Shown here: positions 37,220-52,628 of the stretch, piece after piece
Layout: each line of letters starts with the position of its first letter
Position numbering within the stretch: the stretch's first letter is position 1
NCBI GenBank assembly: GCA_028699155.1
Contig: JAQVVD010000004.1
Location: 3,924-67,923, forward strand
Source of the DNA: Candidatus Peribacteraceae bacterium
GTDB taxonomy: Bacteria; Patescibacteriota; Gracilibacteria; Peribacterales; Peribacteraceae
Reading direction: 5' to 3'
DNA: 64,000 nt
The notes under the pieces: model-generated
Told to the model about the DNA's origin: nothing
The model's input: only the letters and a program-made list of their open reading frames with translations
The model's database searches: none
Program-made: the position numbers and the translations under genes

Positions 37220-37417
37220 ACCACACCAGAGTGTACACGTGCCCTCTGCAGAAAATTCTGTTTTCCCAAGATGGATCACATTCCTCTTCTCCCCCCGCAC
37301 CCAGACCCTGGACAAGGGAAGATTTTTTTGGTACGCTCCGTGCTCGCTGCGCGCGCATGTGCGCGGCATTTTTGTTTGCCTTCAAAAAAGAAACCTGCCT
37401 CTCTCCCCATCTATCGC

Positions 37418-40336
37418 ATGTCTTCTGACTCTATCATCGTAAAAGGAGCAAAGATGCACAACCTGCAAAATATTGATGTACAGATTCCACGGAACAAACT
37501 CACCGTTGTAACCGGTCTGTCTGGTTCCGGCAAGTCATCGCTCGCCTTCGATACGATCTTTGCGGAAGGGCAGCGCCGGTACGTGGAAAGCCTGAGCGCG
37601 TATGCCCGCCAGTTCATTGCACAGATGGAAAAGCCGGAAGTAGAGAGCATTGATGGCCTGAGCCCCGCCATCAGCATCGATCAGAAAACCGCCGCACGAA
37701 ACCCGCGTTCCACGGTCGGCACCGTGACAGAGATTTACGATTACATGCGCCTGCTCTGGGCGAAGGTGGGCAAGGTGCACTGCCCGATCTGCGGCAAGCT
37801 GCTCTCCAAGCAATCCTCCAGCGGAATCGTGGATACAATCGCCTCTCTCCCGAAGGGGACGAAAGTGTTCCTCCTTGCTCCTATTGTGAGCGATCGAAAA
37901 GGTGAACATACCAAAGTATTCGATGCGATCAAGCGCGAGGGATTCGTGCGCATGCGCATCGATGGAACGATCGTCACTGCCGACGAAGAGATTCGGCTGG
38001 ACCCGAAGAAGAAGCACACGATTGAGATCGTGGTTGACCGCCTGGCTGTACGGGAACTGCAGGCTGAGGAAGGCAAAGCAAACCCGAACCGTTCGCGCCT
38101 GGCCGACTCGGTGGAACTGAGCCTGAAGAAAGGAGAGGGCACCATGATCGTACTCAATGCAGATACGAATGAGGAAACACGTTTCTCTGAGAACTTCGCC
38201 TGCGATGAGCACCCGGACCAGGGCATACCGCAGATCGAGCCACGGAGTTTTTCCTTCAACTCTCCGCACGGCGCCTGCAGCACATGCCACGGACTCGGCA
38301 CGATCCTGCAAATCGACCATGATTCCATCATACCGAATCCACGGCTCTCTCTGGCAGAGGGAGCGATCCATCCCTGGGCGACAAGTTCGAGCCGAATGAG
38401 CTTCATGATGCGGCTACTGGAGGCTCTTTCAAAGAAACTCGGATTCAGCATGAATGCGCCGTGGAAAACACTCTCGCCAGAGGTGCAATCAGTCATCTTA
38501 CATGGTCATGACGAACCGATGGAAATGTCCTGGGAGAGCACGAGTTTCGACGGGACGTACCAAACGAAGTACGAAGGCGTCATCCCCAACCTGGAACGCA
38601 GGCACAACGAAACCGATTCGAGCTACGTGCGTTCGCAGATTGAGGAGTACATGCTGGAATTGCCTTGTCCGGATTGCCAGGGACGGCGCCTGAAGAAAGA
38701 GATTCTCGCAGTCACAGTGGGTGAGAAGAATATTGTTGATGTGACGAATATGAGCGTGGAAGATGCGCAGAAATTCTTCTATGCATTGATACCGGAAGAA
38801 TGGCGCGAAAAATTTGAAGGCAACTGCGAAGCGGCCGAAGGTATCGCGCCGCTGAACGCGTACGATTTCACGATCGTCCGCAAGGTGCTCCGCGAGGTGA
38901 TCGTACGGCTCTCGTTCCTGATGAACGTTGGCTTAAAGTACCTGACGCTCTCGCGCTCCGCCGCAACGCTTTCCGGCGGAGAAGCGCAGCGCATCCGCCT
39001 GGCGACGCAAATCGGCTCCGCGCTGCAGGGAGTGCTCTACGTCCTGGATGAACCGAGCATCGGCCTGCATCAACGGGATAATGCGCGACTCATTGAGACG
39101 CTCACGCGCCTGCGCGACCTCGGGAACACCGTGATCGTCGTGGAGCATGATGAGGAGACGATGCGTGCTGCAGACTACCTGCTGGAAATCGGACCGGGCG
39201 CCGGCAAGTACGGAGGGAAAGTCACCGCACAGGGAACGGCGCAGGAGCTGATAAAAAATCCTCAATCTGTCACAGGACAGTACCTGAGCGGGAAGAAATC
39301 ACTCCCCGTTCCCAAAACCCGCCGCAAGGGCACCGGCACCTGCATTACGATCCACGACGCACACCTCCATAATTTACAACACATTGACGTGTCGCTTCCT
39401 CTGGGAACGTTCATAGGAATAACCGGCGTATCAGGATCCGGAAAATCGAGCCTGATTCACGGCATTCTGGCTCCCGAACTCCTGAAGCAACTCAATAAGG
39501 CGCACTCCAAGCCGCAGAATGTCGGAGGCTTCACAGGACTGGAACACCTGGATAAGGCAATCGTCATCGACCAGTCCCCCATCGGGAGAACGCCCCGCAG
39601 CAATCCGGCAACGTACACGGGCATCTTCACGGACATCCGCGACCTCTTCTCCTCGACGCCGGAGGCGAAACTGCGCGGATACAAGCCGGGGCGATTCAGC
39701 TTCAATGTGAAAGGCGGTCGTTGCGAGGAATGCGAGGGCGACGGTCTCAAACGCATAGAGATGCACTTCCTCCCGGACGTGTACGTCACCTGCGAATCCT
39801 GCAAGGGACAGCGCTACAACCGGGAAACGCTGGAAGTGACCTACAAGGGGAAGAATATTGCGAACGTGCTCGATATCACCGTGCGGGAAGCCCTGGAATT
39901 CTTCTCCGCGATCCCCACGCTCAAGAAGAAACTCCAGACGCTGGAAGATGTAGGCTTGGGGTACATCCATCTGGGACAGAGCGCCACGACGCTCTCCGGA
40001 GGAGAAGCGCAGCGCGTCAAACTCGCAACGGAGCTGATGCGGCGTGCGACGGGCAGGACATTCTACATTCTGGATGAGCCTACGACCGGACTGCACTTCG
40101 ATGATATCCACAAGCTTCTCACCGTGCTGCAACGCCTGGTGGATAAGGGCAATACGGTTCTGGTGATTGAACACAATCTGGACGTCGTGAAGGCTGTGGA
40201 TTTCGTGCTGGACCTGGGACCGGACGGAGGAGGCGGCGGCGGGAGAATAGTTGCCATGGGCACACCGGAAGAGGTTGCACAGACGAAAGGAAGCTATACC
40301 GGAGAGTACCTGAATGCAGTGCTTGCGAAGAAGTAG
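37418..40336 (+). CDS. uvrA: excinuclease ABC subunit A
   Basis: 972 aa from ATG at 37418, with two ABC modules ([14 protein letters not shown]; [10 protein letters not shown]), zinc-finger CxxC pairs, and [18 protein letters not shown] signatures. Confidence 0.95.
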
Positions 40337-41944: not shown

Positions 41945-42180
41945 GTCTGAAAGGAGTAAAAGAAGGCAAAAGACGCAGAGGATTGAAAAGAATCCTTATG
42001 ATACCATTTTGCCCGGTAAAGAACAGTTGTCCTTTGCTTCTCCTGACTCTTCTTCCTTCTCCCCCTTGTCAGACATCGCCGCACCGAATGCGGAGACGGC
42101 AATTTTTGCGAATGTGCAAGCGTACATTCTCCTGGCGCTTCCTACGGCGGATAGAACTGTTTTTTCTGCGGAATAGAGGG

Positions 42181-42197: not shown

Positions 42198-44951
42198 ATG
42201 CAGTGGAATGAATTTCAATCATACATCCGGCACTTTGCTTATCAGGATCAGGAACGCCTGAAGGAAGCATTCTACTTTGGAGAAAAGGCACACGAAGGAC
42301 AGGTGCGATTCTCAGGGGAACCGTACTTTAACCACCCGATTGCAGTCGCAAAAACACTCGCAGATATGGGGGCAGATGCGGATACGCTGATCGCAGCGCT
42401 CCTGCACGACACAGTGGAAGATACGTCGCTCACCCTGAAGAAAATTGATGAAAAATTCGACGGAAAAGTGGCGTCACTCATTGACGGGGTAACCAAATTA
42501 TACGCAGAAGATCTGCAGGACCATAAAGAAATCCGGACGCTTGATGAGAAGATAGAAACACTCCGGAAGATGTTCACCTTCCTGGAGAAGGACGTGCGCA
42601 TCATGGTCATCAAACTCGCAGACAGGCTGCACAATATGCAGACAATCGAATTTTTCCCGAAGGAGAAACAGCAGACGTACGCGCAAGACACGCTGGATAT
42701 CTACGTGAAAATTGCCGAGCGTCTCAGTATGCTGGACATGCGTGAAGAGCTGGAATACCTGTGCCTCGCGGTGTTGGAACCCGCACTGCTCAAATCGCTG
42801 GTAGAACTGCGCAGTACGCATGAGCAGCAAGCGCAGCAAGTGATCCGTACCATGCAAGAGAAAATTGGCGGTTTCGTGCGCAATCCGCCTGTACGCATCG
42901 AGTTCGCACAGAAACCCTGGCATAAACTCCGCCTGCAGTTGGAGGCAGGAGGAGGACCGGTAACGGGAATATCCGATCTGGGGATGTTCTTCATCTGCAA
43001 AGACAACAACGCCTGTTACCAGGCACTCGGCATCCTCCACCAGCTGTGGCCGCGTGAACAGCTCTCGTTCCAGGATTTTATCAATGCCCCCATGGTGAAC
43101 GGCTACCAGGGATTGCATACCACCGTCATTCTTGAGAATGGCATGCGCATTCGCTGCAAGATCCGTTCTGAGGAAATGCAAACGTACGCACATCGCGGGA
43201 TTACGACAAAATGTTTCGACAGCAAAGCAACCGGTCTCCTGGAATATTTGCCTTGGACCAAGCACATCTCCACCCTCTCACAAGACACTACGGACAAAAG
43301 CCAGGAATTCTGGGAGAGCCTGCAGAGCGACATCTTGGGGGAATCGATCATCGTTCACAGCAGTGACAGCCAAACTATTATGCTCCCGGAGGGCGCGACT
43401 GTTTTGGATGGAGCTTTCTACTGCTACGGCAATAACGCACTCTCGCTCAAAAGCATCATGATGGACGGAAAGGACGTGCCGCTCTACACGCCGCTGCAGA
43501 ATGGCGCATCTCTCGCTATCGAAGTCAGCAGGAAGAAAACCGTCAACCACGATTGGCTACGATACGCGAACACCGGATTGGCAACCGCCAATATCCGAAC
43601 CGCACTCTCCTCCCGATCTGCCGCAAAGAAAATACAATTGGGACGACAACTGCTGCAAGACGTCTTCTGCAAGAAGCATAAGGGATTCATCGAAGAATTT
43701 GACGCAAAGAGTCTCGTCAATGGAACCGCCTCTCTGGGATACAAGACGCTCGAGGATGCATACATTGCCATTGCAGACGGCCACCTGGATCCTACGTCCC
43801 TCTTCGAAGTGCTCTTCCAACAGAAGAAGACGCGCGCTGTTACGCCTCAGTACGAACGCTGTGTCGTGGATTTCTCCGTCAATCTGGCTGATGCGGCATC
43901 TGTTGATGGAGTTATGAGTACATGGAAGAGGCACAATGCCGCGATGAAGAAGATGCGATTCAAACCTCTCGCGAATGCACGAAGATTCGTACACTGGTCT
44001 CTGCTGCTCACCCCTCCCGAGCAACAAGAGATCATTTCGGAACTGCAAGCCGCAGGAGCGACGAACATATCGCTGCAAAAAGCATATGAGCAGCGCAAGT
44101 TCCTGTACCTACTCCTCGGTACGACGATGCTGTGGGGGCTCGACCCTGTTGTCGCACATCGTCTCCTTGCAACTGTGATTACTCCATTGGACCTCACACT
44201 CCTGCGTTTTCTTGCGTTCTTTGCATCAACGGCGTGCTTCTACTTCATACAGTCCCGCCTGGCACAACAGAAATTCAAACCGCTCACCTTGCGGGATCGC
44301 TGGCTCTTCCTCTCCGCCATATCTCTCTTTGCTACAGCGCTCGGCACGTACTTCGCATTGTGGTACATCTCTCCTACGCAGTACATCCTCTTCATTCTGG
44401 CGGGCACAACCGTTCCGTCGGTGCTCGATGCTCTGTTCCATGGCACGAAGAAAAAAATGCCCGTCGCCGCATTCGCGGCACTGTCGCTCACGATCCTCGC
44501 CATGATGGCCATGCAGGGTACATCGCTCGTTGGCGTCGCATCTGCGGTCCTGGCATCCTTGGGCTTCACGCTCTACTCACTGTTCAACAAGTACTATCAA
44601 CTGCACACCGCCCGCGTGCAGGCACGGTACGCCGCATTCCTCTTCTGGCTCGCCTCCATCCTATTGCCCCTCTCACTTCTGCTCATTCCGTGGACACATA
44701 TCTCAACGCTTTCTCTGCCCGTCATTCTCGGCAGCGTCGCCTTCCTCCTCCTTTTCACCACCGTACCGTACGGCCTTTTCTACGCGCTCCTCCTTCAGAA
44801 AGATACATACAAGCTCGGTGAAGTACTCCTCCTCACGGCTGTACCGACCGTCGTTGCCGAATCGGTTCTCTCGCATTCGCTCTATCCGCTCATCACGCTC
44901 CCCATTCTCCTCGGGGTTTTCGCGCAGCAATGGCGGTCGGCAAAAGAATAG
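42198..44951 (+). CDS. long RelA/SpoT homolog (HD hydrolase, synthetase-like, TGS, ACT-like) fused to a C-terminal EamA/DMT-type 10-TM domain
   Basis: HD motifs HPIAVA...LLHDTVEDT...ADRLHNM, a synthetase-fold segment (CYQALGILHQLWP...NGYQGLHTTV), TGS (IMLPEGATVLDGAFY), and an ACT-like region. From aa 633 (nt 44094) onward there are about 10 hydrophobic helices with EamA-like repeats. Confidence 0.85.
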   Translation: MQWNEFQSYIRHFAYQDQERLKEAFYFGEKAHEGQVRFSGEPYFNHPIAVAKTLADMGADADTLIAALLHDTVEDTSLTLKKIDEKFDGKVASLIDGVTKLYAEDLQDHKEIRTLDEKIETLRKMFTFLEKDVRIMVIKLADRLHNMQTIEFFPKEKQQTYAQDTLDIYVKIAERLSMLDMREELEYLCLAVLEPALLKSLVELRSTHEQQAQQVIRTMQEKIGGFVRNPPVRIEFAQKPWHKLRLQLEAGGGPVTGISDLGMFFICKDNNACYQALGILHQLWPREQLSFQDFINAPMVNGYQGLHTTVILENGMRIRCKIRSEEMQTYAHRGITTKCFDSKATGLLEYLPWTKHISTLSQDTTDKSQEFWESLQSDILGESIIVHSSDSQTIMLPEGATVLDGAFYCYGNNALSLKSIMMDGKDVPLYTPLQNGASLAIEVSRKKTVNHDWLRYANTGLATANIRTALSSRSAAKKIQLGRQLLQDVFCKKHKGFIEEFDAKSLVNGTASLGYKTLEDAYIAIADGHLDPTSLFEVLFQQKKTRAVTPQYERCVVDFSVNLADAASVDGVMSTWKRHNAAMKKMRFKPLANARRFVHWSLLLTPPEQQEIISELQAAGATNISLQKAYEQRKFLYLLLGTTMLWGLDPVVAHRLLATVITPLDLTLLRFLAFFASTACFYFIQSRLAQQKFKPLTLRDRWLFLSAISLFATALGTYFALWYISPTQYILFILAGTTVPSVLDALFHGTKKKMPVAAFAALSLTILAMMAMQGTSLVGVASAVLASLGFTLYSLFNKYYQLHTARVQARYAAFLFWLASILLPLSLLLIPWTHISTLSLPVILGSVAFLLLFTTVPYGLFYALLLQKDTYKLGEVLLLTAVPTVVAESVLSHSLYPLITLPILLGVFAQQWRSAKE

Positions 44952-44980
44952 GAATACATGCCGCGACATCGGTATACACA

Positions 44981-46048
44981 CTATTTTTCGACTCGGTCGA
45001 GATTCATGAATACTGTTTCCCAACTGATGCCAAGATCGACACGCGCCTGTTTCCCCGGCTGATCGGGACAATCAACGAAAGTAGGCAGAGGCTTGCCCTT
45101 CAAGCAATACGCATGCGCCCCCTCGCCAAATACTTCGCTGAACCGGTGCATCATGAGACTCCGCGTACTGATAATGGGACTCTCTATTGGCTGCCACTTT
45201 CCGCTATTGACTCGCGCTCCTTGTATTCTGAAAATCTTTGCGATCAAGTACCGTATCTTATTGCGGCGCTCCCGATTGATATTCTCACGAATATGATCGA
45301 ACAGTTCCGTGCGCGCGCACGAGGCAAACCTGCGGTTTCGATACTCTTTGGGAGCAACGCTCACATTGTCGATGCACGCCGCAATGGCGGGATTGCTCTG
45401 GATTTCGCTCGCTATCTTCAGGGATCGATCGCGATCATGCGCATAGAATGCACGCGTATGATCCGGACGGATCAACGGAGTCACCGGCGCCGTTTCCGCA
45501 TCATCCGGAGGCAGTTGAATATGGATATCGGAAACGAAACGAAAGTCACGGAGCGCGAGCGATTGGGGATCGCGGATACGCCCGCCCGCATGAGCAAACA
45601 CGAAGAGCGGGTCTGCAATTCTCCGCTCGACCTCCTCCGGAGGAAGTTCCTCAAAAAATCCCCCTGCATTCGGGAGCGTTCTGGCAAGTTCGCGAAGAGA
45701 AGACGGATCACCCAGCGCAATAGCGGCGTAGAACGCATCGGCAACCTGCCGCCGGATGCTCAGGATCCGATGGCGCTCGGCAAGCTCCGGCGCATACGCC
45801 ACATCGGCAATGACTTCTGCACGCATATCCTGTACATCGGTACACTCGATTTTCCCCTGATCATGTAACTGGCGGAGCACTCCCATCAGTCCCTCGCCTG
45901 CATCGGAAGCAGACACACCAATACCGGACCCGGACCCGTCGGATTGCGGTTCGAGCTCTTCGAGCGCATCTCTGATAATAGCATCCACATCATGGGGCAG
46001 CGCATCTCCATTGGTCAGACCGTTGCTATGCTCGTTGCCTTCTGACAT
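44981..46048 (-). CDS. hypothetical protein
   Basis: 355 aa with an acidic N-terminus. No motif recognised. I prefer it over the Arg-rich opposite-strand ORF 44930-45868. Confidence 0.55.
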   Translation of the reverse strand: MSEGNEHSNGLTNGDALPHDVDAIIRDALEELEPQSDGSGSGIGVSASDAGEGLMGVLRQLHDQGKIECTDVQDMRAEVIADVAYAPELAERHRILSIRRQVADAFYAAIALGDPSSLRELARTLPNAGGFFEELPPEEVERRIADPLFVFAHAGGRIRDPQSLALRDFRFVSDIHIQLPPDDAETAPVTPLIRPDHTRAFYAHDRDRSLKIASEIQSNPAIAACIDNVSVAPKEYRNRRFASCARTELFDHIRENINRERRNKIRYLIAKIFRIQGARVNSGKWQPIESPIISTRSLMMHRFSEVFGEGAHAYCLKGKPLPTFVDCPDQPGKQARVDLGISWETVFMNLDRVEK

Positions 46049-48263: not shown

Positions 48264-51200
48264 GTGTTCGATCCGGTAGATCCCAAACAGGCATTGCCAA
48301 AAATGGAGCTCGGCATCCTCCAGTACTGGAAGGAGGAAGATATCTTCCAGCGCAGCATCAAGCAGCGGTCTTCCGTACAGGGTCGCGCCTGGCACGATGC
48401 GAAATCAGCCAGTCCGGAGGATACGTTCTCCTTCTACGACGGTCCGCCGTTCGCCACGGGGCTCCCACACTACGGGCATCTGCTGGCCGGAACGATCAAG
48501 GATGTGATCCCGCGCTACCAGACGATGTGCGGCAAAGTGGTGCAGCGTCGGTTCGGCTGGGATTGCCACGGCCTGCCCGTGGAGAACCTGATTGAGAAGG
48601 AACACGGCATAGAGGGGCGTAAGCAGATTGAGGAGATGGGCGTGGGCAAATTCAACGAACTCTGCTGCAGCTCCGTACAACGCTTCACGAAAGAGTGGCA
48701 GGAAGTTGTGGAGCGTATGGGGCGCTGGGTGGATATGAACTGGGACTACCGCACCATGGACCCTGACTACATGGAAAGCATCTGGTGGGTCTTCAAGCAG
48801 CTCTACGATAAGGGATTGGTCTACGAAGGGCACAAGCCCATGCACATCTGCCCCCGCTGCGTGACTCCCCTCTCCAACTTCGAGGTGACGCAGGGCTACA
48901 AGGAAATCACCGATACGTCGGTGACGGTGAAATTTGAATTAGTAGATGAACCGGGCACATTCGTACTGGCATGGACGACAACGCCATGGACACTGCCGGG
49001 GAACCTGTTTCTTGCTGTCGGTCCAAAGATCCAGTACGCCAAAGTTGCATTTGAGGGGAACCACTACATCCTTGCAAAGTCAGCTGTTGAAAAAATATTC
49101 AAAGGGAAGGAATACAAAGTGCAAGGAAACATGGCAGCAAATACGCTCGCCGGAAAACACTTTAAGCCCTTGTTCCCGTACTTCGTTGAGACCTACAAGA
49201 AAGAGAAAAATACATTCCGAATCGTTACTGCAGATTTCGTTGCAACGGATGAAGGCACCGGCATCGTTCACATTGCTCCGGGATTCGGCGAGGATGACTT
49301 TCGCATCGGCGAACGCGAGAAGGTGGATGTCCTGCAGCACGTCACGATGGATGGCAAATTCGTGCCGGAGGTGACGGACTTTGCGGGAATGGATGTGAAG
49401 CCGATTGATGATCCGGGCAAGACCGACCGCAAGGTGGTCGAGTGGCTGGAGAAACACGGGCTCCTCTTTTCCAAAGAGCCCTACCGCCACAGCTATCCGC
49501 ACTGTTGGCGGTGTGACAGCCCGCTGCTCAACTACGCCACCAGCTCATGGTTCGTGAGTATCGAGAAGATCAAGGAGAAGCTCCTGAGCAACAATGCCAA
49601 GACGGAGTGGATCCCGGCGCATCTGCGCGACGGCCGATTCGGCAAGTGGCTGGAGGGTGCGCGCGACTGGGCGATCAGCCGCAACCGCTACTGGGGTACG
49701 CCGCTGCCAATCTGGCGCAATGAAGAAACCGGAGACGTGGAAGTGCTTGGGAGCCGCGATGATTTAATGGCACACGCGCCGGAGCGGTTCACCAAGGTGA
49801 CAATCGTTCGCCACGGCGAGAGCGAGGGAAACTTAACCCCTATCTACCAGGCGATTGAGCCCGGAACCAACCTGACAAAGCAGGGGAAGGAGCAGGCGAA
49901 GGCAACGGCGAAACTGCTCGCAGGCAGAGATCAGAAGTCAAAAATCAGAAGTCAGGTTCCTGTGGACATCATCTACTGCTCCCCGCTCGCACGCACGCAG
50001 CAGACTGCGCAGACCATCGCGAAGGAAACGGGAGCGGAGATCATTGTGGATGACCGCCTGCGCGAGGTGAACTTCGGGGAGTATGAGGGCAAGACCGTGG
50101 ACTTTAACGACCTCGCATTCGTGAAAGCGCGTCGAGCCCATAAGCTGCAGGAAAAGAGCCCGGAGAGCATCTACCATTTTCCGGGCATGGAAACGTGGAA
50201 TGACGTGCAGAAACGCCTCTCGTCTTTCATGGTGGAAATGCTCCCCCGGCACCGCGGCAAGCATGTGGTTGTCGTGACGCACGCGGACGTGGTACAGAAT
50301 GCCAAGCACTTCTTCACCAGGGAGGACCCGCTCAAGATCTCGCACCAGCCGTACCCGAGCTACGCGGAACCGCGCGTGTTCTTCTGGGATCATGAACGCA
50401 ATGCCCAGATGGACCTGCACAAGGATACGGTGGATGGAATCCTTTGGAATGGGAGCGGAAGTACAAATGGTGTGGAGGCACTGTTTGTCCGCCATGGCGA
50501 AACCGACTGGAACAAGGAGAAGAAAATCCAGGGAAAGCAGGATACTTTGCTGAATAAGACAGGAAGGGAACAAGCTAGGAAACTTGCAAAGACACTCGCG
50601 AAAGAACACTTCGATGCCATCATTTCATCCGACCTTAAACGAGCTGCAGAAACTGCCGATATTCTCTCCGAAGAATTGGGTATGCCGGTTGATGCGCGTT
50701 GGGATGAACTCCGTGAACGAAGTTTCGGCGATTGGGAGGGTAAAAAACGCGACGAAATTGATGCGACCATCCCCGGACAGTTCGCGGTGCAAGATATGCA
50801 TTTCCCGAATGGGGAAACAATCAATGCATTCTTTTCGCGCATCCGCTTAGCACAACAGAAACTGCTCAAGGCGTATGCCGGTAAACGCGTACTCGTTGTC
50901 GCACATGGCGGCGTACTCAAAGCCATTGAGGTACTCAACGGATTGAAGTCCCTGGAAAAAGTACAGACAAGCTTCACAGAAAATACTGCATCTGTTCATG
51001 TCTCACTGCATCCCCCGTTCAAGCGCATCCCGGAAGTCCTGGATTGCTGGTTTGAGTCGGGTGCGATGCCCTACGCGCAATCGCACTTCCCATTCGACCA
51101 TGCGGGTGAAGAGCTGCCGCCCGGTTTCCCGGCGGACTTCATCGCGGAAGGAGTCGACCAGACCCGCGGATGGTTCTACACCCTCATGGTGCTCTCCTCC

Positions 51201-52628
51201 GCGCTGTTCAATGAACCTGCATTCAGGCACTGCGTCGTAAATGGCATCGTGCTGGCAGAGGACGGTAAGAAGATGAGCAAGCGCCTCAAAAACTACCCGG
51301 AACCCACGGAGATCGTGGAGAAGTACGGCGCAGATGCGATTCGGTTCACGCTGATGAGCTCACCCGCGGTGCGCGGAGAAGACCTGCGCATGAGCGAGAA
51401 ACTGGTCGCGGAGAGCCTCCGCAACGTCCTGCTGCCCCTGTGGAACACCTACAGCTTCTTCGTGACGTACGCGAATGCGGCAACATTCGAGCCGGTTGCT
51501 ACGCGCAAGGCATCCGCACATCCGCTGGACCGGTGGATCCTCGCGGAAGTGCAGGATCTGGTGAACCGGATGACGGAGCAGCTCGACCGGTACGAACTCT
51601 CCGCGACGTGCGCCGAGCTGCACGACACGATCGATGCGCTTACCAACTGGTACGTGCGCCTCTCCCGCCGCCGCTTTGCGGGGAAGACCGCACTGGAAGA
51701 AGGTGAGAGCGCAAGCGCGATCCAGCAGATTGACGGAGCGGAAGAGGACCGCCTGGATGCGCTGCGTACGCTGTACGATGTCCTCATCAGCCTCACGCAG
51801 CTGCTCGCACCGTTCTGCCCGTTCATCACGGATGCGATCTATCTGAACCTCGTGCCGGAGGAGCACGTTTCCGTGCACCTCACGGACTGGCCGGAGGCGA
51901 GAGCGCTCAGGAAGGAAGAGCTTGCGCTTCTTCAGAAGACGCGGCTCCTCAGGACGATCGTCTCGCTCGGTCTCTCCATCCGCAGCGAGCAGAAGATCAA
52001 GGCGCGCCAGCCGCTCGCATCCGCCACCGTCGCCGTGCCTCCGGCACTGGCGAAAAATGCGGCGCTCTCCGATGAGGATGTGCAGCTGCTCAGGAACGAA
52101 CTGAATGTGAAACACCTGACGTTCACGGAAGACCCCGGTTCCCTCGCCACCGCAGTGGCGCTGGTGGACGCGCGCAAAGCCGGCCCGCGGCTGGGCGCGC
52201 GGGTGCAGGAAGTGATCAAAGCCGGAAAGGCAGGAGAGTTCACACAGCAGGAAGACGGCTCCGTCCTCGTCCTTGATGAAGTGTTCTCCCCCGATGAAGT
52301 ACAGATCGTGTATCGCGGCGAGGAAGGCAGAAATGCCGCTGCGAACCACGGCATCGTCGTGAGCATAGAGACAACGCTCACCGAGGACCTGAGACTGGAA
52401 GGGCTCGCGCGCGATGTGATTCGCGCGGTACAGCGCCTGCGCAAGGAAGCCGGACTGGAATTCACCGACACGATCACGCTGGCAATCGATGGCGCAGAGG
52501 AGCTGATGCAGACGCACGGCGATCTTATTGCCCATGAAACGCGCGCCCGATTGGGAGAGAATTCCGGCGGGAAGCACACTGTGGATTTAGAAGGACAGGC
52601 AGTGACAGTGCGGTTTGAGAAAAAATAG
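48264..52628 (+). CDS. ileS: isoleucine--tRNA ligase (type 2) with two inserted histidine-phosphatase (PGAM-like) domains
   Basis: 1454 aa with a GTG start. HIGH motif (PHYGHLLAG), editing CP1 (TTPWTLPGN, GTGIVHIAPGFGEDD), KMSKR at aa 1002-1006, and a type-2 C-terminus. aa 511-705 and 737-915 carry RHG...H phosphatase motifs. Confidence 0.9.
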   Translation: MFDPVDPKQALPKMELGILQYWKEEDIFQRSIKQRSSVQGRAWHDAKSASPEDTFSFYDGPPFATGLPHYGHLLAGTIKDVIPRYQTMCGKVVQRRFGWDCHGLPVENLIEKEHGIEGRKQIEEMGVGKFNELCCSSVQRFTKEWQEVVERMGRWVDMNWDYRTMDPDYMESIWWVFKQLYDKGLVYEGHKPMHICPRCVTPLSNFEVTQGYKEITDTSVTVKFELVDEPGTFVLAWTTTPWTLPGNLFLAVGPKIQYAKVAFEGNHYILAKSAVEKIFKGKEYKVQGNMAANTLAGKHFKPLFPYFVETYKKEKNTFRIVTADFVATDEGTGIVHIAPGFGEDDFRIGEREKVDVLQHVTMDGKFVPEVTDFAGMDVKPIDDPGKTDRKVVEWLEKHGLLFSKEPYRHSYPHCWRCDSPLLNYATSSWFVSIEKIKEKLLSNNAKTEWIPAHLRDGRFGKWLEGARDWAISRNRYWGTPLPIWRNEETGDVEVLGSRDDLMAHAPERFTKVTIVRHGESEGNLTPIYQAIEPGTNLTKQGKEQAKATAKLLAGRDQKSKIRSQVPVDIIYCSPLARTQQTAQTIAKETGAEIIVDDRLREVNFGEYEGKTVDFNDLAFVKARRAHKLQEKSPESIYHFPGMETWNDVQKRLSSFMVEMLPRHRGKHVVVVTHADVVQNAKHFFTREDPLKISHQPYPSYAEPRVFFWDHERNAQMDLHKDTVDGILWNGSGSTNGVEALFVRHGETDWNKEKKIQGKQDTLLNKTGREQARKLAKTLAKEHFDAIISSDLKRAAETADILSEELGMPVDARWDELRERSFGDWEGKKRDEIDATIPGQFAVQDMHFPNGETINAFFSRIRLAQQKLLKAYAGKRVLVVAHGGVLKAIEVLNGLKSLEKVQTSFTENTASVHVSLHPPFKRIPEVLDCWFESGAMPYAQSHFPFDHAGEELPPGFPADFIAEGVDQTRGWFYTLMVLSSALFNEPAFRHCVVNGIVLAEDGKKMSKRLKNYPEPTEIVEKYGADAIRFTLMSSPAVRGEDLRMSEKLVAESLRNVLLPLWNTYSFFVTYANAATFEPVATRKASAHPLDRWILAEVQDLVNRMTEQLDRYELSATCAELHDTIDALTNWYVRLSRRRFAGKTALEEGESASAIQQIDGAEEDRLDALRTLYDVLISLTQLLAPFCPFITDAIYLNLVPEEHVSVHLTDWPEARALRKEELALLQKTRLLRTIVSLGLSIRSEQKIKARQPLASATVAVPPALAKNAALSDEDVQLLRNELNVKHLTFTEDPGSLATAVALVDARKAGPRLGARVQEVIKAGKAGEFTQQEDGSVLVLDEVFSPDEVQIVYRGEEGRNAAANHGIVVSIETTLTEDLRLEGLARDVIRAVQRLRKEAGLEFTDTITLAIDGAEELMQTHGDLIAHETRARLGENSGGKHTVDLEGQAVTVRFEKK

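Follow-up and report, generated by a model that had tools for sequence, protein, structure and literature searches.

A probable RelA/SpoT-type hydrolase with a pseudo-synthetase domain and a C-terminal DMT-fold membrane domain in Peribacteria

A 64-kb stretch of DNA (64,000 nt) from Candidatus Peribacteraceae bacterium, contig JAQVVD010000004.1, encodes a long RelA/SpoT homolog (RSH) that continues in frame into an integral-membrane domain of the drug/metabolite transporter (DMT) fold. In the following, this whole stretch is called the window, positions are window coordinates, and "window protein" denotes the product of the open reading frame (ORF) 42198..44951 on the forward strand, which the ORF list of the window gives as a single protein of 917 amino acids (aa). 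The product of this RSH-DMT gene is built from an HD hydrolase domain, a pseudo-synthetase domain, a Core domain, TGS-like, helical and ACT/RRM domains, and a DMT/EamA-fold domain. A preliminary description, made from the DNA letters, had proposed such a fusion, and the same architecture was found in at least 176 full-length proteins. What is new is a putative long RSH hydrolase for guanosine tetra- and pentaphosphate, (p)ppGpp, that carries an integral-membrane regulatory or effector module, and this architecture is robustly established. The gene and its parts, all on the forward strand, are as follows.

42198..44951, forward: complete RSH-DMT fusion gene with its stop codon at 44949-44951 (ORF list, full-length homologs)
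42267..42731, forward: HD (p)ppGpp-hydrolase domain, aa 24-178 (Pfam HD_4, E 1.4e-40)
42780..43217, forward: pseudo-synthetase domain, aa ~195-340 (partial Pfam RelA_SpoT match, motif analysis)
42903..42992, forward: degenerate ATP/phosphate-binding motifs G1 and G2 (family alignment)
43146..43169, forward: replaced catalytic strand RIRCKIRS, aa 317-324, which is P-L-E-V-Q-I-R-T in Rel (family alignment)
43227..43337, forward: Core helix-turn-helix, aa 344-380, between the pseudo-synthetase and TGS domains (AlphaFold2 helices 344-350, 352-363 and 368-380)
43344..43526, forward: TGS-like beta-grasp domain, aa 383-443 (AlphaFold2 strands and helix)
43554..43817, forward: alpha-helical (AH/HEL) domain, aa 453-540 (Pfam RelA_AH_RIS, AlphaFold2)
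43854..44081, forward: ACT/RRM-like beta-alpha-beta-beta-alpha-beta domain, aa 553-628 (AlphaFold2 secondary structure)
44082..44945, forward: DMT/EamA-fold membrane domain, aa 629-916, with ten transmembrane (TM) helices in a 5+5 arrangement (AlphaFold2, Foldseek)

The fusion is shared by a large family. At least 120 clusters of relatives, grouped at 90% identity and 886-975 aa in length, came out of a word-indexed search across 5.8 billion clusters of proteins; their identity to the window protein is 39-55%, and they cover 89-100% of the query (most of them at least 93%). With 56 more distant proteins, these 120 closest relatives make up the 176 fusions of ~900 aa, which were drawn from JGI, ENA, NCBI and Logan assemblies. 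Where a source is named, it is Candidatus Peregrinibacteria, Peribacteria, Peribacteraceae or Patescibacteria, and the source labels are all generic ('HD domain-containing protein', 'hypothetical protein', RelA/SpoT, GTP diphosphokinase or ppGpp-hydrolase). The start codon of the window gene is backed by the family N-terminus MQW.EF.SH, in which W3 is at least 90% conserved. The preliminary description had named a hidden stop codon or frameshift near nt 44090 as the way in which two genes might pass for one. None was found: the reading frame is unbroken across this position in the window DNA, the relatives align straight through the junction, with a near-invariant L-W-G-x-D-P motif at aa 645-650, and the passage from the ACT domain to the first transmembrane helix (TM1) has near-zero indels across the family.

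The membrane domain was also searched on its own. A HMMER/phmmer search with the C-terminal 288 aa against 1.84 billion representatives at 50% identity (E<=1e-3) returned 112 proteins, nearly all of which are ~900 aa long and have the domain at residues ~630-910, and at least 85 clusters at 50% identity hold it in proteins longer than 800 aa. The short matches that were examined either retain the ACT tail (P0167, P0181 and P0203) or begin 12 nt from a contig end (P0135), which marks them as truncated gene calls. Thus, standalone relatives of this DMT clade were not detectable by phmmer among the 1.84e9 representatives. A natural split version, with a standalone DMT gene beside an RSH gene, was looked for and not found either, and the clade appears essentially confined to the RSH fusion. 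A separate case is P0124 (410 aa), whose ACT tail and DMT domain are preceded by an N-terminal piece resembling an EF-G/LepA-type domain, which points either to a chimeric assembly or to another fusion. In a scan of species-representative genomes, which is not a census, a full-length match was obtained at only two of the best 80 loci, both in metagenome-assembled genomes of Peribacterales; the remaining loci of the 80 match aa ~1-550 only and represent canonical Rel.

The catalytic residues were assessed by comparing residues 28-502 of Bacillus subtilis Rel, rebuilt from a numbered HMMER alignment, with 120 family members in a 121-sequence MAFFT alignment. HD is the most conserved domain of the protein (29% of its columns are at least 90% conserved), and its hydrolase site is intact, as had been supposed. 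The predicted catalytic and Mn-binding residues of the window protein are R37, H46, H70, D71, E74, D75, D142, R143, H145, N146 and T149; in Rel numbering, R44, H53, H77, D78, E81, D82, D144, R145, H147, N148 and T151 are invariant in all 120 closest relatives. The full set is also present in 48 of the 56 more distant fusions; five others have lost most of it, two are N-terminally truncated, and one carries an N148T substitution. The family members P0143, P0144, P0164, P0174 and P0179 (e.g., L082:361-3132) have lost most HD and synthetase residues and kept the whole architecture, and they may be doubly inactive regulatory paralogues.

The synthetase fold is recognizable in the window protein. 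Pfam RelA_SpoT (PF04607) matches aa 257-338 with an E-value of 2.5e-14 and 53.9 bits (cut-off 27), covering profile positions 22-105 of 113 only, and the HD and synthetase (SYNTH) region superposes on the catalytic fragments of Staphylococcus aureus Rel and RelSeq with a template modelling score (TM-score) of 0.83. The catalytic site itself is degenerate. The motif strings on which the preliminary description had based this view (AQKPWHK, DLGMFF and RCKIRS, besides NGYQGLHT and DRLHNM) are all found in the window translation, and the placement of the three degenerate motifs agrees with HMMER alignments to Mycobacterium tuberculosis and B. subtilis Rel as well as with the 121-sequence alignment. 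G1 reads FAQKPWHKLRLQ (aa 236-247) in the window protein and GRPKHIYSIYRK in Rel, and G2 reads SDLGMFF (aa 259-265) in place of YDLLAVR. In Rel numbering, R241 is replaced by Glu in 111 of 120 relatives (A237 in the window protein), S247 by Lys or Arg (K243), K251 by Gln in 101 of 120 (Q247), and R269 by Val or Ala (F264); K243 is kept in the window protein as K239, and the D264 column, occupied by D260 in the window protein, lacks conservation in the family. In the catalytic strand, E324 has become Arg in 118 of 120 relatives (window R319), V325 has become Cys in all 120, and Q326 has become Lys in all 120 (window K321). The catalytic Glu at position 324 is present in 0 of 176 family members, including none of the 56 more distant fusions. 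The window protein therefore does not carry the residue set of a synthetase-competent RSH (R241, K243, S247, K251, D264/R269, E324 and Q326), and the careful alignment that might have rescued these residues confirmed their loss instead.

Much of the domain is nevertheless under constraint. The substitute basic strand, R-[VI]-R-C-K-I-R-T, is near-invariant, with an RCKR-type sequence in 118 of 120 close and 35 of 56 distant members; the guanine-stacking Y308 is kept in 120 of 120 relatives and H312 in 118 (Y303 and H307 in the window protein), and the N-G-Y-x-G-L-H-T-T block is retained in the family. At least 90% conservation is reached by 32 of the 146 columns (22%), every one of them within aa 273-340, a segment that nearly matches HD in conservation. 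This confinement indicates that the ATP-side half has been freed of constraint, whereas the acceptor-side half has been kept and has become more basic. Judged by these substitution patterns, the synthetase domain is a conserved pseudo-enzyme and not a decaying one. From the retained guanine-side residues and the near-invariant basic strand, we infer a non-catalytic role, either regulatory or nucleotide-binding, and the domain is probably an allosteric or guanine-nucleotide-binding scaffold. Such a role would parallel that shown for the pseudo-synthetase of Acinetobacter baumannii SpoT (PMC9974481).

The preliminary description had assigned the full long-RSH layout to aa 1-630, which stands in part. 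The HD domain, the synthetase fold that follows it and the helical domain are present, as are TGS and ACT domains at the level of fold; the RIS/zinc-finger domain (ZFD) is absent and the TGS domain lacks its tRNA-sensing histidine, and the window protein does not have the full C-terminal set of TGS, helical, ZFD/RIS and ACT/RRM domains. It scores 385.6 bits with the NCBIfam model spoT_relA (TIGR00691), below the cut-off of 499.2. A full-length AlphaFold model, built from a 53-sequence alignment, reached a mean predicted local distance difference test (pLDDT) of 86.6 and a predicted TM-score (pTM) of 0.75. The Core, whose role in SpoT has been described (PMC9974481), has eight residues that are at least 90% conserved (W353, S368, F371, W372, L375, D378, I379 and L380). 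Pfam TGS matched just 6 of 53 relatives, so that the presence of this domain, claimed earlier alongside the ACT-like domain, otherwise holds by fold alone. In Rel/RelA, the CCA end of tRNA is sensed by a TGS histidine, H420 in B. subtilis; its position is occupied in the family (n=176) by Phe (99), Tyr (42), Leu (26), Ile (4) or Met (1), and by Y410 in the window protein. Pfam RelA_AH_RIS matches aa 457-551 over profile positions 4-94 of 185 only, and the last AH helix is separated from the first ACT strand by 12 residues (541-552) that are unconserved and of low pLDDT; given this partial match and short linker, the RIS/zinc-finger domain is absent and there is no room for it. From the end of TGS to TM1, the family has a median of 184 aa. 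The ACT/RRM domain, the least conserved of all (19% identity to the window protein), passes directly into TM1 without a linker in the full-length model. Taken together, the loss of ZFD/RIS, the replacement of the TGS histidine and the dead synthetase point to a loss of ribosome- and tRNA-dependent control.

For the C-terminal region, earlier described as about 285 aa with roughly ten TM helices and a DMT-like character, the evidence is mainly structural. In a hydropathy scan, hydrophobic segments follow one another without a break between aa ~650 and 910. Ten helices were obtained in the full-length model and again in a separate AlphaFold model of aa 630-917 (25-sequence alignment; pLDDT 91.3, pTM 0.90), and they are arranged as the two 5-TM repeats of the DMT fold. 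In a Foldseek search against the PDB, the top 36 matches were all DMT-fold transporters, with TM-scores up to 0.71, followed by noise. These matches include the triose-phosphate/phosphate translocator TPT (5Y78, TM-score 0.71), SLC35B1 (with ADP), Vrg4, the CMP-sialic acid transporter, LicB and PfCRT; YddG (5I20, TM-score 0.59) has the highest identity among the listed DMT matches, at 19%. So shallow a ranking (TM-scores of 0.59-0.71) permits no inference on the DMT substrate. At the sequence level, EamA was detected in relatives only. Pfam EamA matched 27 of 53 relatives at E<=0.01 (best 4.3e-9), but the C-terminal 285-317 aa of the window protein gave no EamA match at E<=10 and only a spurious Suv3 match. 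In the relatives, the matches span nearly the whole 135-position profile and fall on the first half in some proteins and on the second half in others; only some of them exceed the 28.2-bit cut-off. The two-repeat reading of the domain is supported by these matches to either half. A direct hhalign comparison of the N-terminal with the C-terminal half was not significant (probability 1.8%), and a profile search of the PDB with the C-terminal alignment gave YddG (5I20) as its best match, at an E-value of 0.11. Based on loop charges and the positive-inside rule, both termini of the domain are predicted to be cytoplasmic, which fits a cytoplasmic enzyme at the N-terminus. The domain has 28% identity to the window protein in the family, with 12 of 288 columns at least 90% conserved. 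Near-invariant residues are W646, G647, D649 and P650 in TM1, R670 in TM2, and Y718, L721, Y729, F790, R810, P857 and Y858; in our reading, the L-W-G-x-D-P motif of TM1 and R670 of TM2 fit the generic EamA pattern. The DMT-coding part of the gene, at 44000-45000 of the window, also shows strongly negative GC skew (to -0.27) and negative AT skew. We ascribe both skews to codon usage in the transmembrane segments, which is rich in Leu, Phe and Ser, and see no distinct feature in them.

The closest known counterpart in predicted function is SpoT[Hs] of Moraxellaceae, exemplified by A. baumannii SpoT (AbSpoT, 7QPR), the best full-length structural match of the window protein. Both have an active-type HD domain, a dead but retained pseudo-synthetase, Core, TGS and helical domains, and a C-terminal RRM/ACT domain. 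In SpoT[Hs], the C-terminal domains, including the RRM, tune hydrolysis allosterically through the Core, and the enzyme is unresponsive to starved ribosomes; for AbSpoT, the enzymatic proof came from complementation and in vitro assays (PMC9974481). Several differences set the two apart. The ZFD, which matters in AbSpoT, is deleted in the window protein; its pseudo-synthetase keeps Y308/H312 and gains the R-x-R-C-K-I-R strand; and unlike the soluble AbSpoT, the RSH-DMT protein, from Patescibacteria, has a ten-helix DMT domain fused to the RRM. The window protein is also nearer in sequence to Rel of Mycobacterium (E 4e-69) and Bacillus (1.5e-67) than to AbSpoT (2e-45). This, together with the origin of its relatives in Peregrinibacteria, argues against membership in the SpoT clade of Beta- and Gammaproteobacteria, which is defined by descent from the relA/spoT duplication of Proteobacteria, and synthetase activity was probably lost independently of SpoT[Hs]. 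The best sequence matches are the bifunctional Rel enzymes (B. subtilis 6YXA, Streptococcus equisimilis 1VJ7, and M. tuberculosis 5XNX and 8FR8), on which the catalytic N-terminal region superposes at a TM-score of ~0.8 and with which it shares identical HD catalytic residues. Rel synthesizes (p)ppGpp on starved ribosomes by means of TGS H420, the ZFD and the RRM; in the RSH-DMT proteins, H420 is replaced and the ZFD is missing. Likewise, the Rel synthetase residues R241, S247, K251, R269, E324 and Q326 are replaced in the RSH-DMT family, and only K243 is kept in the window protein.

On the membrane side, the C-terminal domain shares its ten helices in two 5-TM repeats with DMT/EamA (PF00892) transporters such as YddG, TPT and the SLC35 nucleotide(-sugar) transporters. 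It is very divergent and, unlike these transporters, always has an RSH enzyme joined to its N-terminus. A precedent for a new sensor domain on the C-terminus of a long RSH, with canonical regulatory domains replaced, is provided by plant CRSH/Rsh4 and its EF-hand Ca2+ sensor (PMC3153485). That enzyme is a synthetase under the control of a soluble Ca2+-binding domain, whereas here an integral-membrane transporter fold is joined to a hydrolase. The preliminary description knew of no account of this architecture, and none was found: RSH census papers (including PMC3153485) describe no long RSH with membrane-spanning domains, and a search of the full-text literature found nothing joining RSH, SpoT or ppGpp with EamA, transmembrane domains, Peregrinibacteria or Patescibacteria. 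One riboswitch review that names both EamA and ppGpp was set aside as irrelevant, as it links them only through different ykkC subtypes.

The way in which SpoT-type hydrolases sense the nutritional state of the cell has long been a question in the field. Two kinds of input are known. One is provided by soluble partner proteins, among them Rsd as well as DarB, ACP and YtfK (the last three are named in bioRxiv 10.1101/2025.08.07.669093), and the other is intramolecular allostery (PMC9974481). In its sequence, the window protein displays the traits of the SpoT[Hs]-type functional class, i.e., an intact HD domain, lost synthetase residues and a pseudo-synthetase under selection. We consider a combined reading, which seems to us as apt to hold as to fail, in which the protein is a membrane-built, monofunctional, SpoT[Hs]-like (p)ppGpp hydrolase and the state of the DMT domain serves as regulatory input to HD. 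In such an enzyme, the transporter-type domain would take over the regulatory input from ribosome-based control. Its ligand-bound or transport-cycle state would move TM1 and the attached RRM, and the shift of the RRM could alter the packing of RRM, pseudo-synthetase and Core that sets HD activity, as in A. baumannii SpoT, where stronger or weaker RRM/ZFD/Core contacts change hydrolysis 3- to 35-fold (PMC9974481). Alarmone breakdown would in that case track the supply or flux of a metabolite carried across the membrane. An amino acid is a plausible candidate, since Peribacteria depend on import for most of theirs and synthesize nucleotides but few amino acids (PMC4736985). The alarmone itself would presumably be made by a separate synthetase elsewhere in the genome. 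The coupling of transport or sensing to alarmone hydrolysis, already proposed in the preliminary description, is thus suggested by analogy with SpoT[Hs]. A more specific version, tentative and in our judgement rather doubtful, is that in Peribacteria a membrane 'transceptor' replaces ribosome/tRNA control, with the DMT domain reporting the supply of an imported nutrient, for instance amino acids taken from a host or from the surrounding community, to the hydrolase via a rigidly attached RRM.

If true, this would add a new input logic to alarmone signalling and would make the protein the first long RSH under the control of an integral-membrane domain. A candidate sensor or transporter is here joined covalently to the predicted hydrolase, and the synthetase residues, the zinc-finger/RIS domain and the tRNA-sensing histidine have been lost. 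As candidate sensor and hydrolase lie in one polypeptide, the regulatory path would be amenable to heterologous expression. The fusion also bears on the biology of the candidate phyla radiation, to which the uncultured Peribacteria belong; a link between uptake and growth at the membrane would suit these bacteria, which have small genomes, are probably symbiotic and depend on imported amino acids.

Several observations weigh against the combined reading. The ACT/RRM and DMT domains (19% and 28% identity to the window protein) are the least conserved parts, and they are separated from the catalytic half by the 12-residue, unconserved, low-pLDDT linker (541-552); both features are as compatible with a simple tether as with a coupled sensor. 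In addition, five family members have lost the HD catalytic residues too, and the window protein has Phe at the position of K45. Finally, no second RSH or small alarmone synthetase was found among ORFs of at least 60 aa in the 64-kb window with B. subtilis Rel and the family profile.

One alternative is that the DMT domain is a passive anchor, neither transporting nor sensing, whose only effect is to keep at the membrane a (p)ppGpp hydrolase that is constitutively active, e.g., near sites of uptake or cell-envelope synthesis or with less access to ribosomes. The fast evolution of the DMT and ACT domains, the flexible linker, the divergence of the window copy beyond the reach of Pfam EamA and the small number of conserved DMT columns (12 of 288), most of which we judge to be generic to EamA, would all be expected of an anchor. 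We still regard it as unlikely, because one or two helices would suffice for anchoring, whereas the full ten-helix, two-repeat fold is kept in every member, with high confidence in the models, together with a fixed-length junction to the ACT domain and near-invariant polar or charged intramembrane residues (D649, R670, Y718, Y729, R810 and Y858).

Less probable still, and in our opinion quite improbable, is the reverse logic, in which a working DMT transporter is gated by (p)ppGpp or another guanine nucleotide bound at HD or the pseudo-synthetase, so that the protein would be an alarmone-controlled transporter. The highly conserved guanine-side residues and the new basic cluster do suggest nucleotide binding without catalysis, the rigid ACT-TM1 junction is in keeping with it, and the five members that keep the architecture despite the loss of HD residues fit a catalysis-free regulatory role. 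Against it, the retention of the HD residues (120 of 120 close relatives and the full set in 48 of 56 distant fusions) indicates selection for catalysis and not for binding alone.

Another possibility, to which we assign a very low likelihood, is that HD acts on a different substrate, such as (p)ppApp, pGpp, an NADPH-like 3'-phosphate (as MESH1 does) or host-derived alarmones or nucleotides entering via the DMT domain; in its scavenging variant, this would possibly involve an upstream NUDIX enzyme, in genomes without a synthetase. It would accommodate the lack of a synthetase in the 64-kb window, the phosphorylated or nucleotide substrates of the best DMT structural matches (TPT 5Y78, SLC35B1 with ADP, and Vrg4), a co-oriented NUDIX gene 6-82 nt upstream in five of nine neighbourhoods, and the occurrence of MESH1 and a (p)ppApp hydrolase among the PDB sequence matches of the window protein. 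On the other side, the HD domain is far closer to the (p)ppGpp hydrolases of long RSH enzymes (E 1e-69 to 1e-45) than to MESH1 and (p)ppApp hydrolases (1e-10 to 1e-7), the Foldseek ranking is shallow (TM-scores of 0.59-0.71) with sequence-level links only to EamA and YddG, Peribacteria are reported to make their own nucleotides (PMC4736985), and the NUDIX gene is dispensable, being lost in the window and in the neighbourhoods L087 and L088. Lastly, the idea that an error of sequencing or assembly around nt 44090 joined separate RSH and EamA transporter genes deserves practically no credence. Nothing was found in its favour, and such an artefact is excluded by the recurrence of the same continuous architecture in at least 176 independent proteins (of JGI, ENA, NCBI and Logan origin), by an indel-free junction and by the lack of a standalone version among the short matches examined.

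The NUDIX gene mentioned above encodes ~130-165 aa on the same strand as the RSH-DMT gene, and both closest relatives are among the five neighbourhoods that have it directly upstream; in a sixth neighbourhood, it is one gene removed. Its subfamily could not be assigned, as no NCBIfam model came near its cut-off and the top matches in the PDB were uncharacterised Nudix proteins; it may take part in the catabolism of alarmones or nucleotides. In the window, a stretch in front of the RSH-DMT gene aligns locally with the last ~20 codons of the NUDIX gene of the closest relative (IFANVQAYIL...) with a score of 46, compared with a shuffle maximum of 39 (0 of 300 shuffles reached it), and in one frame only. 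It is a probable C-terminal remnant of a NUDIX gene deleted in the window. The remnant and the intact genes are located as follows.

42072..42131, forward: remnant of the NUDIX 3'-end (local alignment to closest relative)
L086:5515-5994, co-oriented with RSH-DMT: intact NUDIX gene
L083:9477-9950, co-oriented with RSH-DMT: intact NUDIX gene
L084:9442-9918, co-oriented with RSH-DMT: intact NUDIX gene
L085:9575-9964, co-oriented with RSH-DMT: intact NUDIX gene
L001:7810-8304, co-oriented with RSH-DMT: intact NUDIX gene

In the window, the RSH-DMT gene is flanked by genes on the opposite strand, a redoxin gene upstream and a conserved 355-aa gene downstream. Gene order is largely shared among the nine neighbourhoods examined (UvrA, (Metallophos), Redoxin, RSH-DMT, unknown, unknown, M20 peptidase, IleRS::His_Phos), with upstream members missing from some of them. 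Given this conserved order, adjacency alone carries little functional weight. A scan for promoters and terminators around the RSH-DMT gene gave results no better than shuffles. The 355-aa ORF (44981-46048, reverse strand), which converges on the RSH-DMT gene, has no Pfam match. A similar-sized convergent gene occupies the same place in nine of nine neighbourhoods, and its 3' end often overlaps RSH-DMT by 4-20 nt; its position and size suggest that these genes are orthologous.

Two further genes of the window deserve mention. The UvrA ORF (37271-40336, forward strand) encodes 1021 aa, compared with 949-975 aa in relatives, and its true start is probably an internal Met at about residue 50. The IleRS gene (48264-52628, forward strand) encodes 1454 aa, with two His_Phos_1 domains inserted between the halves of tRNA-synt_1 (Pfam His_Phos_1, E 7e-84, in two stretches). 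Every IleRS gene in the nine related neighbourhoods, which include L001, L083-L088 and the P0005 place, has this insert, and an aminoacyl-tRNA synthetase that carries phosphatase domains is unusual.

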